In this document: positions 3,359-29,399 of the stretch, in pieces | How positions within the stretch are numbered: the first letter of the stretch is position 1 | Layout of the letters: the number at the start of each line of letters is the position of its first letter | DNA from: Candidatus Flemingiibacterium sp. | GTDB lineage: Bacteria > Bacillota > Clostridia > Oscillospirales > CAG-272 | Reading direction: 5' to 3' | DNA length: 64,000 nucleotides | NCBI GenBank assembly: GCA_045579745.1 | Contig: JAZNMQ010000072.1 | Coordinates: 10,358-74,357, forward strand | The notes under the pieces: model-generated | Databases searched by the model: none | What the model was told of the DNA's origin: nothing | Seen by the model: only the letters and a program-made list of their open reading frames with translations | Translations under genes and position numbers: made by a program

Positions 3359-4147
3359 ATGAACATTTTGGTGTGTATTAAGCAGGTTCCGGGCTCAAGC
3401 AATGTTGAAGTTGATCCCGTAACCGGCGTTTTAAAAAGAAGCGGCGTGCAAAGCAAAATGAACCCGTATGACTTGTACGCTATCGAGCTTGCACTTTCAT
3501 TGCGAGAGAAATTCGGCGGCCGAGTTGAATGTATTACGATGGGGCCGCCTCAGGCAAAAGCTGTCGTGATTGAAGCGATTTGTATGGGCGTTGACAGCGG
3601 AACTGTGCTTTCGGATAGAAAATTTGCGGGTGCGGATGTTCTTGCAACCGCATATACAATTTCTCAGGGTATAAAAATTTGCGGAGAGTTCGATCTGATT
3701 CTCTGCGGAAAGCAAACAACCGACGGTGATACAGCGCAGGTTGGAGCGGAGGTCGCAGAGTATTTATCTATACCGAACATTTCAAATGTTATCTCTGTGG
3801 ACGCGCTCGAAAAAGATAAGCTTTATCTGACCTGCTCGCTTGATAACAAAACGATCAAAGAGAGCATCAAGATGCCATGCCTTATTTCAATGGATTCGGA
3901 TGTTAACTCGCCCCGTCTTCCTTCCTTTAAGGTTAAGCAGAGTATTGACGAATCGCTCGTTCGGTTTTTATCCTTTGAGGATTTTGAAGATCAAAACGAG
4001 AAGCATTACGGGCTTTCGGGCTCCGCAACGCAGGTAGAACGCATATTTCCGCCCGAGGTCAACAAGGAAAAAGCGGAAATATCGGGTACGGCAGAGGAAC
4101 AGGCTGGACAGCTTCGTATGCTGCTTGACAAGCTCAAGATGATATAA
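3359..4147 (+). CDS. etfB: Electron transfer flavoprotein beta subunit (LctB/FixA-like)
   Basis: MNILVCIKQVP, MNPYDLYAIE, TMGPPQA, DRKFAGADVLATAY, GKQTTDGDTAQVG motifs. Confidence 0.95.
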   Translation: MNILVCIKQVPGSSNVEVDPVTGVLKRSGVQSKMNPYDLYAIELALSLREKFGGRVECITMGPPQAKAVVIEAICMGVDSGTVLSDRKFAGADVLATAYTISQGIKICGEFDLILCGKQTTDGDTAQVGAEVAEYLSIPNISNVISVDALEKDKLYLTCSLDNKTIKESIKMPCLISMDSDVNSPRLPSFKVKQSIDESLVRFLSFEDFEDQNEKHYGLSGSATQVERIFPPEVNKEKAEISGTAEEQAGQLRMLLDKLKMI

Positions 4148-4156
4148 GGTGGTTAG

Positions 4157-4289
4157 CGTGAAAAATAGATTTTTCACGCCGGGTTTTGTGGCTTTCGCTG
4201 CTTTGTAGCAGCGATTTTGCTCCGCAAAACCACCCACAATTCCCAAAATAAGGAAGCTTTCGCTAACGCGAAAGCCATGGTGATTTAAT
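4157..4289 (+). repeat. Structured repeat element, copy A (between etfB and etfA)
   Basis: Four hairpins (CGTGAAAAA/TTTTTCACG; CGCTGCT/AGCAGCG; TTTTGC/GCAAAA; GCTTTCGC/GCGAAAGC); highly similar to 28525-28673 and partly to 22735-22834. Confidence 0.85.
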
Positions 4290-5480
4290 ATGGCACAATT
4301 GAAAATAAATCAAAATCAAATAACGCCCGAGCTTGCAAAGACGCTTGTTCAGAGCTGTCCGTTTGGAGCGATTCAATTTGAAAACAATACGCTCAGCATA
4401 AGCTCGGCATGCAAGATGTGCAAAATATGCGTAAAGCGCAGCAGCGGTGCAGTTGAGTATATAAGCGACGAGGCTCCGACAATAGATAAAGCTCTTTGGC
4501 GCGGTATTTGCGTGTATGCTGACTGCCGCGACGGAGAGATTCACCGCGTTACATACGAGCTCTGCGGCAAGGCGCAGGAGCTTTCACAGGTCACCGGACA
4601 CCCGATTTATGTTTTATTAATCGGTCACAACATTGAAAATGCGGCAAAAAAACTGCTCCACTACGGAGTCGACAAAATTTTTGTATATGATGATCCTGCA
4701 TACGAGCACTTTAAAATAGAGCCCTATGCGGCGGCATTTTACGACTTTATTGAAAAGGTCAAGCCATCATCTGTTTTGATCGGCGCAACAGCTCTCGGAA
4801 GACAGCTTGCACCGAGAGTTGCGGCTCGTTGCCGCGCAGGCCTGACTGCCGACTGTACGGTGCTTCAAATGAAGGAAAATACGGACTTGGTTCAAATTCG
4901 CCCTGCCTTCGGCGGCAATATAATGGCGCAGATTGTATCTTCAAACACGCGCCCTCAGTTCTGCACGGTCAGGTATAAGGTTTTTTCAGAGCCTAAGCCT
5001 CAAGCCTCGACAAAGGGCGAGATCGTCAATATGGAGCTGTCCGCTGAAAAGCTTGCGTCTGACATTGATGTGTTGAGCATATTTGAAAAGCCGACGGATG
5101 TTGATATTGCAGAGGCGGATGTCATTGTTGCGATCGGAAGAGGCGCGCAAAGCGAGGGAATGATTGCTCAGGCAAAGGAGCTTTGCGGCTTGCTCGGCGG
5201 AGTGCTTGCATGCACAAGGCCGCTTGCCGAGAGTGGTGTCTTCGATTCCAAGCATCAGATCGGACTTTCGGGAAGAACCGTTAAGCCTAAGTTCATCATT
5301 TGTCTTGGCATTTCGGGTGCGGTACAATTCGCAGCAGGAATGAAATCCTCGGATGTGATCGTAGCGGTAAACTCCGATAAAAATGCACCGATTTTTGATG
5401 TGGCTCATTACTGCGTTATAGGCGATGTCGGAGAAATTGTGCCGAAGCTTATTGCAAAAATCAAGGAGGCGAAGCAATGA
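4290..5480 (+). CDS. etfA: Electron transfer flavoprotein alpha subunit with N-terminal ferredoxin-like [4Fe-4S] domain (LctC-like)
   Basis: N-terminal SCPFGA and CKMCKIC; [48 protein letters not shown]. Confidence 0.92.
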
Positions 5481-6874
5481 TGTATCAGAGTGTGACGCTT
5501 GAAGATGTAAAGCGCCTCGAGAGCATCGTCGGAGAGAGTGAAGTCCTTTACGGTGACCAAATCAGCCTCGATTATGCTCACGACGAGCTGGGCGGAATTG
5601 AGAAAATGCCTGAGGTGCTTGTCAGAGTTCGCTCGACCGAGGAAGTCAGCGAGGTGATGAAGCTCGCATATTCAAGAGGAATTCCGGTTACTGTCAGAGG
5701 AAGCGGCACGGGTCTTGTAGGTGCGGCAGTTGCCATTGAGGGCGGAATTATGCTTGAAACGACCAAGATGAATAAAATCATCACGCTTGATAAGAGCAAT
5801 TTAACCGTTACAGTTCAGCCGGGTGTTCTTTTAATGGAGCTCGCGGCATTTGCAGAGGAGAACGATTTCCTTTATCCGCCAGATCCGGGTGAAAAATCCG
5901 CAACAATCGGCGGAAATATTTCAACAAATGCAGGCGGAATGCGTGCGGTCAAATATGGCGTTACAAGGGATTATGTCAGAGAGCTGACCGTTGTAATGCC
6001 AAACGGTGAGATATTAAAGCTCGGTGCAAGGGTTGCCAAAAACAGCTCGGGCTATAGCCTCAAGGATTTAGTAGTGGGCTCCGAGGGGACGCTTTGCATA
6101 ATTTGCGAGGCGGTTTTAAAGCTGATCCCTCTGCCTAAGGTTACGATCAGCTTGCTCGTTCCGTTCGCGGATATGAAAAGCGCAATCGAAGCAGTTCCGA
6201 AAATTATCTGCTCAAAGATAACGCCGACGGCGATCGAATATCTTTCACGGGATACTATCCTGTTTTCCGAAAGCTATCTCGGCAAGAAATTTCCCGATAC
6301 CAAGAGCGATGCGTACATTCTTTTAACCTTCGACGGTAACACCGAGGAGCAGGTTGAAGCTGATATGAGCGCGGTTGCAAATCTCTGCCTTGAAATCGGT
6401 GCGCTTGATGCGTATATCGTTGATACAGAGGAGAGAAAGAAGGCTGTATGGTCGGCAAGAGGCGCGTTCCTTGAAGCGATAAAAGCTTCTACTACAGAAA
6501 TGGACGAATGCGATGTTGTTGTTCCCGGAAACAAGGTTGATGAATTTATCAAGTTTACCCATTCACTTTCCGACGAAATGAATATTCGTATTCCGAGCTT
6601 CGGTCATGCGGGCGACGGAAATCTGCACGTTTATATTTGCCGCGATCAGCTGTCCGACGAGGAATGGGAGAAAAAGCTTGCAATTTGCTTTGATCGAATG
6701 TATGCAAAGGCTGATGAGCTTGGAGGACTCGTTTCGGGTGAGCACGGCATAGGCTATTCCAAGAAGGAATACCTTAAAAAGCAGCTCGGCGAAACTCCGA
6801 TCGCCCTTATGCAGGCTATCAAGCAGGCATTTGACCCCAAGAATATTCTTAATCCGGGGAAAATTTGTTTTTGA
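5477..6874 (+). CDS. FAD-linked 2-hydroxyacid dehydrogenase (GlcD/LctD family; likely Etf-coupled lactate dehydrogenase)
   Basis: [76 protein letters not shown]; overlaps etfA stop (ATGA). Confidence 0.88.
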
Positions 6875-6894
6875 GTAAACAAGGAGATTTATTA

Positions 6895-7710
6895 ATGAAA
6901 GACATTTTAACAGCACCTTTTGTGGATGAAATGAAGAAGGTTACTGCCAACATGTACAGACTCGGCTGGGACGAGCGCAACGGCGGAAATATCAGCTACA
7001 TGCTCGAGAATGAGCAGGTTGCAGAGTATTTGGACCTTGACACGGTAATTCGCAGAATACCGATGGGTTTTGATGCAACCGAGCTTATCGGCAAAATATT
7101 TATTGTTACCGGAACGGGCAAGTACTTTAAAAATGTTGAGTGCGACCCCGAAACAAACCTCGGCATTATCCGTATAGCAAAGGACGGTACAACTGCTGAG
7201 CTGCTGTGGGGATATAAGGACGGCGGAAAATTCACAAGTGAGCTTCCCGCGCATTTGATGAGCCATATCGCAAGACTCAAGCAGGATCCTGATCACAGAA
7301 TTGTCATGCACACTCACCCGACAAATATTCTTGCAATGACACATATTCATGAGCTTGATGATAAGAAGTTCACTCATACTATTTGGGAAATGTGCACAGA
7401 ATGTGTTATCGTTTTCCCGGACGGTATCGGGGTGCTCCCATGGATGGTTTGCGGTACAGAGGAAATTGGTATTGCTACGGCAGAAAAGATGAAGGAGTTC
7501 AGGCTCGTTGTTTGGGGACTTCACGGAATTTACGGTGCAGGCAAGGACATGGACGAAACCTTCGGTCTTATTGAAACCGTCGAAAAGGCGGCTGAGCTCT
7601 ACATGCTTATCGCTCATCTGCCTCGCATAAACACTATGACAGATTCCGATCTGAAGGCTGCAGCCAATTCATACGGAGCCGAACCAAGAGCGGACTTTTT
7701 GGATCTGTAA
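6895..7710 (+). CDS. rhaD: Rhamnulose-1-phosphate aldolase (class II aldolase)
   Basis: GWDERNGGNIS, TGTGKYF, FTSELPAH, HTHPTN, PWMVCGTEEIG, WGLHGI; RBS AAGGAG before ATG 6895. Confidence 0.92.
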   Translation: MKDILTAPFVDEMKKVTANMYRLGWDERNGGNISYMLENEQVAEYLDLDTVIRRIPMGFDATELIGKIFIVTGTGKYFKNVECDPETNLGIIRIAKDGTTAELLWGYKDGGKFTSELPAHLMSHIARLKQDPDHRIVMHTHPTNILAMTHIHELDDKKFTHTIWEMCTECVIVFPDGIGVLPWMVCGTEEIGIATAEKMKEFRLVVWGLHGIYGAGKDMDETFGLIETVEKAAELYMLIAHLPRINTMTDSDLKAAANSYGAEPRADFLDL

Positions 7711-22423: not shown

Positions 22424-22734
22424 ATTAAAAATACCACCTTTATAGTAATTAATTTTCAGATAAAATATCGATAAATTCGTGTGGTTGACTCACCAACTAT
22501 AGATTATATCATAAAATTTCAAGAATATCAAGAAGAAAGTAAAAAAATTTACACCAAATATAATTTATTTCTACAGTAGTTATTTTGGCAGAAATGCTTT
22601 TTTTTATAAAATTACAATTATTGAAAATTGCTATTGAAATCATATGAATTATGTGTTATAATAAAAAACGTGGTAATTATTGATTCTTTTTATAAAAGCA
22701 TCAATTAAAACGATAAATAATCAAAGCTCGACAA

Positions 22735-22834
22735 TTTGTGGCTCTATTTTGGTAATTCCAAAGTTTTGCTGCGCAAAACATGCCCCAAAGGGGAGAAAGG
22801 AAGCTTTTGCTAAGCAAAAGCAATATCAGAATCA
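22735..22834 (+). repeat. Structured repeat element, copy C (partial; purC leader)
   Basis: TTTGTGGCT...TTTTGCTGCGCAAAAC...CCCAAA...AAAGGAAGCTTTTGCTAAGCAAAAGC then 13 nt to ATG; same core as copies A and B. Confidence 0.7.
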
Positions 22835-23518
22835 ATGAAAAAGATTTACGAAGGAAAAACCAAAGATGTTTACTCTCTTGATAACGGCAATGTAATGCTC
22901 AAATTCAAGGACGACTGTACCGGCAAGGACGGCGTTTTCGATCCCGGTGAAAATACTGTAGGCCTTACCATCGAGGGTATCGGCAAGGCTAACCTTCAGA
23001 CCTCCGTCTACTATTTCGAGCTTCTCAAAAAAGCCGGCATCAAGACTCATTATGTATCTGCTGATGTTGATAATGCTACTATGGAAGTTCTTCCCGGAAC
23101 CGTATTCGGTCATGGCCTTGAGGTTATCTGCCGCCTTGTTGCAACAGGAAGCTTTGTTCGTCGCTATGGCGAGTACATCGAGGACGGTACTGTTTTAGAG
23201 GGCGGTTATGTTGAATGCACCTTCAAGAACGATGCTAAGGGCGACCCGCTCGTAACATGTGAAGGTCTTGCGGCTCTCGGAATTATGACTCCCGAAATGT
23301 TCGCTTCCATGAAAGAGCAGACACTCAAGATTACAAAAATCGTTGCTGACGACTTAAAATCCATCGATCTTGACCTTTGGGATATCAAGTTTGAGTTCGG
23401 CTACAACAAGGATGAGGTAATCCTCATCGACGAGATCGCTTCGGGCAACATGCGCGTTTATAAGGACGGCAAGATCGTTGAACCCGTAGAGCTCACAAAG
23501 CTTATTCTTAACAGATAA
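22835..23518 (+). CDS. purC: Phosphoribosylaminoimidazole-succinocarboxamide (SAICAR) synthase
   Basis: [50 protein letters not shown]. Confidence 0.9.
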
Positions 23519-28452: not shown

Positions 28453-28524
28453 GTCGACTGTTGATTTTTATATTCTCTTATGTTATAATTTAATTGCTAA
28501 ATATCATTTTAGAAAAGGGTGTAA

Positions 28525-28673
28525 CGTGAAAAATATTTTTTCACGCGGGTTTTGTGGCTTTCGTTGTCTTGTAACAACGATTTTGCAACGCAAAACCAGT
28601 CCCAAAATTCCATGTGATGCAACGCATCGCGTAGAAAGGCAGGCTTTCGCAAACGAAAGCCATGATGATTAAT
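28525..28673 (+). repeat. Structured repeat element, copy B (ABC ATPase leader)
   Basis: Same four hairpins as copy A with compensatory changes, plus an extra GCGATGC-type hairpin insertion. Confidence 0.85.
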
Positions 28674-29399
28674 ATGGATAACAGAATGATGGGAGTGGCG
28701 GATGTACCGCTTCTCGAGCTTCGCAATGTCGTGAAAACCTACGGCTCAAAGCGCGCGCTTGACGATATCAGCTTTACTGTCGGCAGAGGCGGTATTATCG
28801 GGCTGCTTGGACCGAACGGAAGCGGAAAAACCACTATACTGAAGCTCGCGTGCGGACTCCTTACCGCAAACAGCGGAGAGATTTTAATTGACGGAGAGCC
28901 GCCCTCTCCGAGAACAGCGGCGAAGATTGCGTATCTGCCCGATAAAGACTGTCTGCCGGGGAGGTCGAGAATTTGCACGCTGATCGATTATTTTTCCGAT
29001 TTCTATGAGGATTTCGACCGCGTTAAGGCTTACGAGATGATTTCTCGCCTTGAGATAAATCCGCGTGACCGTATGATTACACTCTCAAAGGGAACGCGCG
29101 AAAAGGTTCAGCTCATCCTTGTAATGAGCCGCCGCGCATCGCTTTATCTTCTTGATGAGCCGATCGGCGGAGTTGACCCTGCGGCAAGGGAATATATTTT
29201 GAATACCATTCTAAAAAACTACAGCGAAAACGGTTCGATTATCATTTCAACTCATCTTATAAGCGAGGTTCAGTCTGTGCTTAATGATGTGATTTTCATA
29301 GCTGACGGAAAGGCTAAGCTGTGTGCGTCGGTCAGCGAACTTTGGGAGAAGCATCAAAAGACTGTTGATGAGTTGTTCAGAGAGGTATACAGATGCTGA
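28674..29399 (+). CDS. ABC transporter ATP-binding protein (ABC-2 exporter type); start may be 28662 or 28674
   Basis: GPNGSGKT, LSKG signature variant, LLDEPIGG, ISTHL. Confidence 0.9.
   Translation: MDNRMMGVADVPLLELRNVVKTYGSKRALDDISFTVGRGGIIGLLGPNGSGKTTILKLACGLLTANSGEILIDGEPPSPRTAAKIAYLPDKDCLPGRSRICTLIDYFSDFYEDFDRVKAYEMISRLEINPRDRMITLSKGTREKVQLILVMSRRASLYLLDEPIGGVDPAAREYILNTILKNYSENGSIIISTHLISEVQSVLNDVIFIADGKAKLCASVSELWEKHQKTVDELFREVYRC

Follow-up and report, generated by a model that had tools for sequence, protein, structure and literature searches.

Structured repeats in the Shine–Dalgarno-to-start-codon spacer of unrelated genes in Candidatus Flemingiibacterium: a probable family of mobile elements with a portable ribosome-binding site

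Copies of the repeat in the window

The stretch of DNA analysed here (the window) comprises 64,000 nucleotides of contig JAZNMQ010000072.1 from Candidatus Flemingiibacterium sp. (assembly GCA_045579745.1, positions 10,358 to 74,357 of the forward strand). It contains three copies of a small, hairpin-rich repeat, each ending at the start of a gene: copy A lies between etfB and etfA, copy B precedes the gene for an ABC-transporter ATPase and copy C precedes purC. An initial annotation, made from the sequence alone, had described these as homologous copies of one structured element, and the homology and the proposed core were confirmed at all three positions, as were the compensatory stem changes that it had listed (CGCTGC/GCAGCG against CGTTGT/ACAACG, and TTTCGC/GCGAAA against TTTTGC/GCAAAA). 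Its last hairpin does lie shortly before the gene ATG (it ends 12–14 nt upstream), the Shine–Dalgarno (SD)-like motif reported on the 5' side of that hairpin is present as AAGGAAG abutting it, and the 142-nt gap between etfB and etfA (4148–4289) is indeed due to copy A. Not described in that annotation was a further hairpin with which the element starts (H1, 4156–4179); the three copies are homologous as described, whereas the family itself is far larger (49 matches in this genome, see below).

The features of copy A, all on the plus strand, are as follows.

4146..4152: native SD of etfA, AAGGTGG, directly 3' of the etfB stop codon (TAA, 4145-4147)
4154..4289: copy A, a full-length element (covariance model match, 141.7 bits, E 1.5e-25)
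4156..4179: H1, a 10-bp hairpin, GCGTGAAAAA-TAGA-TTTTTCACGC, whose outer pairs covary
between H1 and H2: conserved segment TTTTGTGGCT
4185..4240: three-way junction, in which helix P2' encloses H2 and H3
4185-4193 with 4232-4240: P2', a long-range helix of TTTGTGGCT with ACCCACAAT
4195-4214: H2, inside P2'
4215-4229: H3, inside P2'
between H3 and the internal SD: C-rich linker CCACCCACAA
4247..4256: internal SD, AATAAGGAAG (AGAAAGGAAG in most copies)
4256..4275: H4, GCTTTCGC-TAAC-GCGAAAGC, flanked by the internal SD and the ATG of the element
4277..4288 (ATG..TAA): tail, C ATG GTG ATT TAA T, with the element's own start codon, directly 5' of the etfA ATG
4290..5480: etfA, served by copy A; its product, EtfA, has a ferredoxin domain at the N-terminus

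Those of copies B and C, also on the plus strand, are listed in the same manner.

28461..28489: promoter-like site TTGATT-17-TGnTATAAT, 5' of copy B
28513-28521: native SD of copy B, AAAAGGGTG
28522..28673: copy B, a full-length element with an optional extra palindrome (121 bits, E 2.6e-21)
28662..29399: open reading frame (ORF) of the ABC-transporter ATPase, the gene served by copy B
22634..22662: promoter-like site TTGAAA-17-TGnTATAAT, 5' of copy C
22735..22834: copy C, an old copy (58.4 bits, E 1.8e-8)
22794-22803: internal SD of copy C, AGAAAGGAAG, intact
22803-22821: H4 of copy C, GCTTTTGC/GCAAAAGC, intact
22835..23518: purC, the gene served by copy C

Copy A thus runs from a TA dinucleotide through H1, the three-way junction (P2', H2 and H3), the C-rich linker, the internal SD and H4 to the tail, with its boundaries set by the decay of identity among close copies; it shares 94% identity with a copy ahead of argD on contig C10. 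The native SD of etfA is now cut off from the etfA ATG by the element, and a GTG within H1 (4158-4160) stands roughly where the native start codon would be expected relative to that SD. The ATG in the tail of copy A is out of frame with etfA, and its reading frame closes at a TAA 1 nt before the etfA ATG (4290); in copy B the corresponding ATG (28662) precedes the ATG at 28674 by 12 nt and shares its frame. Copy B lies inside a 5' untranslated region, given the promoter-like site upstream of it. In copy C, H1 has been lost, P2', H2 and H3 are present but diverged, and there is no first ATG. When copy A was folded and compared with shuffled sequences the z-score was -6.1, with both strands alike, so folding energy alone cannot tell its strand; the sequence is a chain of palindromes and therefore folds equally well on either.

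The region 3359-7710, in which copy A lies, encodes an EtfB / EtfA-ferredoxin / LctD-type FAD dehydrogenase operon (lactate-type, electron-confurcating architecture) that was found, within the genus, only in this genome and in congener G014.

Genomic position, distribution and empty sites

The whole assembly of this genome (2.09 Mb in 93 contigs) yielded about 27 copies by BLAST and nhmmer, while a covariance model (CM) built from 12 full copies gave 33 matches at E<0.01 and 49 at E<1. Position and orientation were not random: all 49 matches are on the sense strand, with the 3' end either on a contig end or at offset 0 on a start codon whose ORF has 60 amino acids or more. The element is 135–175 bp long. 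A comparison set of 103 further copies was drawn from 20 congeneric genomes, and 93 of these stop exactly at an ATG, the others being offset by 1–3 nt or arranged in tandem. Full copies have a native SD directly upstream, which in about 80% of copies lies 4–9 nt before an NTG in H1; the left flank is correspondingly G-rich at -4 to -9, reflecting the stranded native SD, and its register is loose. The positive-skew strand carries 24 of 33 copies, which equals the gene-strand bias, and both strands are used within contigs C25 and C46; orientation therefore follows an asymmetric target and not replication. A specificity for the replication strand (lagging-strand template) was considered and none was found.

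The genes behind the copies are unrelated and include etfA, argD, engB, the ABC ATPase gene, cdsA, purC, ecfT, a methyltransferase gene and rdgB, together with ahcY, serA, a xylulokinase gene, phoH, dpaA, a nucleoside hydrolase gene and genes for small membrane proteins and sporulation; no functional coherence was found among the approximately 49 genes served. Rfam contained no known motif that matched the element: there were no matches at gathering thresholds in the 64 kb and none of relevance to copy A at E<=10, the best sub-threshold match on the sense strand scoring 12 bits.

All 24 sampled genomes of Ca. Flemingibacterium harbour the element, with 1–76 copies each. At family level it was present in 18 of 80 other genera, several with 7 to 40 or more strong copies and most without, and at order level it appeared sporadically in four other families, again adjoining start codons. 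The nearest neighbour of a copy was in the same genome for 70 of the 103 congener copies, against 6.5 expected. Young copies reach 94% identity within this genome and 98.5% within the genus, loops included.

The etfB–etfA junction is empty in 49 relatives (48 other Clostridia and congener G014), where it reads TAAGGAGG, 5–10 nt, ATG; in the present genome it reads TAAGGTGG, TTA, the 134-nt element, ATG, with the coding sequence aligned codon for codon. Two further loci could be compared between sister species, one of which (G011) has the empty and the other (G002) the filled site, with promoter and coding flanks conserved at both.

Locus 1: empty in G011, AAGGAGtcagaaaATG; filled in G002, AAAGGAGtac[AAGATTG…GGTCATAAAA]ATG
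Locus 2: empty in G011, GAGGAGGgatattATG; filled in G002, AAGGCGGtga[AAGATTG…CATAAAA]ATG

These alignments place the element within the spacer between the predicted SD and the start codon, with the native SD left stranded upstream. For argD, no copy of the structured repeat was present upstream of the gene in any of 23 congeners. At one argB–argD junction (L328, G013:C21) there is a different insert of about 150 nt with hairpins of its own, which ends in AGGAAGGAACGGTCATAAAATG, resembling the tail of the element, and which may belong to a second, related repeat family.

Boundaries were mapped from the decay of identity over 116 copy pairs that are at least 85% identical, which put the left boundary 2 nt before H1 and the right boundary 2–3 nt before the ATG; given the former, the dinucleotide WA at the left end is either part of the element or duplicated target. 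WA (TA or AA) is found at both ends, and a 2-bp duplication best reconciles the spacer lengths with those of the empty sites, yet the dinucleotide covaries with subfamily and is maybe terminal element sequence.

Three loci bear on what is recognised at the target. In one (L084, G012:C155) a second copy begins right behind the SD-like tail …ATGGTGATTA of a first copy, and in another (L181, G010:C58) a second copy begins 3 nt past the internal AAGGAG of a first copy that lacks H4; no other tandem or nested case was seen in over 150 copies. In the third (L183, G002:C32:5552-6392) the copy lies directly 3' of the stop codon of an AraC-type gene, behind a fortuitous GAGGGG; on its 3' side come a GTG, six codons and then a terminator hairpin, and it serves no gene, so that it appears to be an insertion into a pseudo-RBS (ribosome-binding site). 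All three copies sit behind SD-like sequences and show that the target is recognised as sequence.

Helices and the 3' module

A structure of five helices was scored over the 103 congener copies, in which 91.5% of cells were paired compared with 78.3% in shuffles (none of 500 shuffles reached the observed value) and 31–48% when the 3' partners were slid. Cells with double changes numbered 576 against 170 in shuffles, and 32 of the 41 pairs had such changes. Each of the hairpins H1 to H4 is strongly supported by covariation: H1 is paired in 97% of cells with outer pairs varying as CG/UA/AU and GC/UA/CG, H2 in 94% with double changes at all 8 pairs, H3 in 93% with TA/GC/CG at one pair, and H4 in 98% with double changes at 5 of 7 pairs. 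P2' (TTTGTGGCT with AGCCNCAAA) is weaker, with 76% of cells paired and scattered compensatory cases. A mutual-information scan gave no further credible helix. An alternative pairing from minimum free energy folding (GGTTTTG/CAAAACC; GGTTTTGTGG/CCGCAAAACC) was rejected in favour of H3, which the TA/GC/CG covariation backs, and so was a long-range ACCA/TGGT pairing that would hide the first ATG, both sides of which are conserved with no covariation.

The internal SD is the most conserved single-stranded motif of the family and is kept in all full copies and in all copies with a decayed 5' part. Its usual form, AGAAAGGAAG, is presumably a nearly full complement of the 3' end of Firmicute 16S rRNA (CCUCCUUUCU); the 16S gene or rRNA operon was not present in this assembly. 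The genome contains 34 recognisable 3' halves of the element against 13 5' halves, from which it follows that in old copies AGAAAGGAAG, H4 and the tail persist and the other parts decay. The spacing of these parts is tight, in that the SD ends 0–1 nt before H4 and an ATG begins 1–2 nt after it; of 73 copies, 56 have this first ATG at a distance of exactly 12 nt upstream of that of the gene, and in 55 it reads into the gene in frame with no intervening stop. H4 stays paired in old copies and, in the homologous register, G·U pairs outnumber A·C mismatches by 21 to 4 (binomial p ~0.001, manual tally). An automated, register-free count gave 21 G·U against 19 A·C, with 15 of the 19 A·C coming from off-register stems, which were chosen in copies that lack H4 or are otherwise degenerate and in two copies with mismatches in the true H4. 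Tolerance of G·U but not of A·C points to use of H4 at the RNA level, as part of a putative split RBS.

Several variants of the element were found. Copies lacking H4 occur at G000 C3:28410-28536 and C24:2285-2410, and also at C3:29942-30050, and in these AGAAAGGAA is fused straight to TGGTCATAAAA-ATG or the module is replaced by a strong GGTGGAG; H4 is therefore dispensable in some resident copies. A distant relative in another family of the order (L105, G034:C6) has H1, H2 and H3 without H4 and ends in AAGAGGAAGGcaactgaaATG, and may resemble an ancestral form with its own SD directly before the start codon. The optional palindrome of copy B is a hairpin of about 24 nt (ATGYGATGCA-N-TGCATCGCRT, at about 28606-28634) that separates the C-rich linker from the internal SD; it also occurs in copies on contigs C5, C78, C15 and C52 and in the 155–160-nt copies of other genomes, and looks like a modular add-on or a nested mini-insertion. 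In copy B, H1 followed by CGGGTTTTGT (28525-28555) scored as terminator-like in a simple scan and could give some transcriptional polarity.

A mobile element weighed against other explanations

We consider it probable (at about 0.72) that these repeats are a family of non-autonomous DNA elements, currently or recently mobile, which home to translation-initiation sites and carry a portable RBS. Of the two possibilities raised in the initial annotation, a non-autonomous mobile element at initiation regions is the one supported by the empty orthologous sites, the spread through the whole genus with its patchiness, the clustering of copies by genome, the tandem and nested insertions and the unrelated genes served; a dedicated cis-regulatory motif found no support as the primary explanation, given the lack of functional coherence and the near-identity of young copies, loops included. 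The element would integrate into the 5–9-nt spacer between SD and start codon, always in the sense orientation. Its 5' part (H1 and the three-way junction), which is conserved only in young copies, may serve propagation, and its 3' part would be a portable initiation region in which a very strong SD (AGAAAGGAAG) is followed by H4, a stable hairpin of 8 bp, and this directly by an ATG, usually exactly 12 nt upstream of the host ATG and in frame with it. Folding of H4 would bring the SD and the element's ATG to normal spacing, giving a split RBS, and the host gene would stay translated, either from that ATG, with four residues added at the N-terminus, or from its own ATG, a few bases further downstream, after re-initiation, which would make the insertion tolerable. 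Because the element would thus bring its own RBS, it is read as a mobile element that homes to gene starts and not as a gene-specific switch. Split sites of this kind are known from genes 38 and 25 of phage T4, in which a hairpin shortens the distance between SD and start codon from 22 to 5 nt and from 27 to 11 nt respectively (PMC3014915). The SD (AAGGAAG) and ATG of the element similarly flank a stable hairpin that is predicted to restore spacing, although the T4 cases are single, gene-specific and vertically inherited and do not belong to a repeated mobile element.

A number of observations weigh against this interpretation or limit it. Terminal inverted repeats are lacking, in that nothing is shared by the left end, (TA)GCGTGAAAAAT, with the right end, ATCACCATGGC, in reverse complement, and the 2-bp WA duplication is only suggested. 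Mobility rests on comparisons between species, since no strain-level polymorphism for presence or absence was obtained for this species: four public sequencing runs held only scraps of the locus and exact-protein look-ups with EtfA, PurC and EtfB had no match. No transposase, recombinase or longer autonomous version was found in this genome or in 830 kb around 120 copies, nor was any parent insertion sequence (IS) sharing the ends of the element. Partnership with a Y1 HUH transposase (IS200/IS605, PF01797) was rejected, as this domain was absent from this genome and from 9 other genomes with the element and present in several without it, and partnership with an IS110-family DEDD transposase was rejected on the grounds that there was neither correlation nor similarity of the loci to the element. 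The function proposed for the split RBS is deduced from sequence and from the contrast between G·U and A·C, and it would not be universal, as in about 20% of copies the first ATG either is out of frame or has become ACG, the latter in several old copies, and there are variants without H4; tails of 11 or 13 nt also occur. Among young copies G·U and A·C are equally rare, so their helices are strictly Watson–Crick; this would be expected of a 5' part with a role in propagation or as DNA, and a role at the RNA level fits equally.

An autonomous version in which an ORF splits the 5' and 3' halves was present neither in this genome nor in the 830 kb of the 120 loci, and there was no match among 50,697 phage records, with two patterns likewise giving no match in viral contigs.

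The nearest analogues are the MIRUs, the target choice of IS900 and IS901, the Neisseria REP2 repeat and the split RBS of the T4 genes, none of which matches the element in structure, size or defining features, and each of the first three suggests an alternative. MIRUs are repeats of 40–100 bp, often in tandem arrays and confined to mycobacteria. They are thought to insert at start codons and to be harmless by virtue of translational coupling of their internal ORF at -4 nt to the host start (PMC12548453). Like them, the element is a small, non-coding and apparently mobile repeat that lies at start codons in one orientation to transcription and probably owes its tolerance to continued translation of the host gene. 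By the same logic the native SD and the NTG at the 5' end of the element could start a short ORF that runs through the hairpins and stops in the tail, with re-initiation at the gene ATG. The NTG is suitably placed, 4–9 nt past the SD, and is GTG, TTG or ATG in 95 of 113 copies, but it is CTG in the other 18. Its frame is open for a median of 41 codons compared with 15 in frame 2, only 3 copies have an in-frame stop triplet in the H1 loop, and in 43 of 113 such ORFs the stop is no more than 12 nt from the gene ATG; yet 40 of 103 stop early, that of copy A in the H2 loop, and the frame relative to the gene ATG is spread over the three classes (25/35/43), with peptide frames that differ between copies. 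Moreover, the depletion of stop triplets is equal on both strands and is therefore a by-product of composition and palindromes, and old copies lose the whole 5' part including the NTG, yet retain the 3' module. A translated leader, or a design open in all frames, was rejected on the same two grounds, namely equal depletion on both strands and ORF frames that are not conserved. The element also differs from MIRUs in being 135–175 bp long with five conserved helices, in being nearly always single, and in having no conserved internal ORF (early stop in 39% of copies, no fixed overlap) but an SD, hairpin and ATG of its own. We regard such coupling as unlikely.

Slightly less likely again is a cis-regulatory RNA, a leader sensing a ligand, protein or temperature that the host has spread into a regulon and for which mobility would be incidental. 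The complex conserved fold (the three-way junction with two hairpins), the strongly conserved unpaired TTTTGTGGCT and AAACCNNCCNCAA, and the weakly terminator-like score of H1 followed by GGGTTTTGT are what such a leader might show. There is also a precedent in Neisseria REP2, a repeat with promoter, RBS and an ATG fused to the ORF, which defines a set of genes co-regulated behind it (PMC3184786). REP2 and the Borrelia IR resemble the element as dispersed stem-loop repeats immediately upstream of ORFs with an RBS and fused ATG; the element, however, carries no promoter (copy A is intercistronic, and the promoters of B and C lie 24 to ~70 nt upstream of it), stands downstream of a retained native SD and serves genes that are unrelated. 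This incoherence argues against a regulon, as do the absence of any Rfam match even at E<=10, the decay of the 5' fold in old copies whose genes stay intact, the lack of a G·U excess in the helices of young copies and the expression of the same genes from a plain RBS in sister species. A regulatory side effect of the element at the level of the host may nevertheless occur. The least probable of the alternatives weighed here, to be viewed with considerable doubt, is a deletion derivative of an IS110/IS900-type IS that would depend for its movement on a DEDD transposase acting in trans, with a guide RNA specific for the SD–ATG region. IS900 and IS901, which we take to be members of the IS110 family, are about 1.4 kb in length and encode a DEDD transposase, and IS110-type elements lack terminal inverted repeats, carry a core dinucleotide that is repeated at the two ends and insert in a fixed orientation, traits that the missing inverted repeats and the WA at both ends of the element would match. 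The statement of Plague (2010; PMC2942039), citing Doran (1997) and Inglis (2003), has IS900 and IS901 inserting between SD and start codon, and a mini-IS consisting of ends only can be moved when transposase and guide are supplied in trans (PMC11187229). The element is likewise site-specific between SD and ATG, but it has no ORF, and no DEDD gene is linked to it or correlates with it: of 14 genomes with the element that were tested, only 4 contained PF01548, and the domain was missing from this one and from G062 (97% complete, 30 contigs, at least 40 copies). Existing IS110 loci in its relatives have no similarity to it (best E 0.08), and the SD stands in variable register to the insertion point, which is unlike a contiguous target set by a guide.

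The element shares with MITEs and REP/REPIN sequences that it is short, non-coding, hairpin-rich, multi-copy and distributed by lineage, and differs from them in having no terminal inverted repeats, in not being extragenic-3' as REP is, in showing no correlation with Y1 or RAYT genes, and in its extreme specificity for the RBS spacer with 100% sense orientation. Small repeats and IS that home to translation starts are already known; it is the five-helix architecture and the built-in split RBS that are distinctive. A bolder proposal, which we hold to be improbable, is that the repeats represent an undescribed class of RBS-homing mobile DNA whose target is an SD and a start codon at initiation spacing, and in which AGAAAGGAAG-hairpin-CCATGG would act both as the replacement RBS after insertion and, while insertion takes place, as a guide or a mimic of the target. 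A relative of IS110/IS900 that carries a guide RNA and lacks a transposase would be one example, a system with a wholly new enzyme another; if the proposal is true, the element would amount to a natural, portable and self-inserting translation-initiation cassette.

For the probable mobile element the consequences are in part practical. Start-codon calling is confused by two in-frame ATGs 12 nt apart, and the discovery of riboswitches and leaders is confused by the resemblance of the element to a structured leader before purC, proS, cysS and similar genes. The copies offer a natural test bed for initiation at hairpin-bridged (split) SD sequences and, if the insertion machinery were found, a site-specific tool aimed at translation starts. 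For the organisms themselves, about 2% of the genes of this genome, and dozens in many uncultured gut and rumen Clostridia, would be translated from an RBS delivered by a selfish repeat; by such delivery small mobile DNA could settle in the few bases where a gene is most sensitive and yet not kill it.

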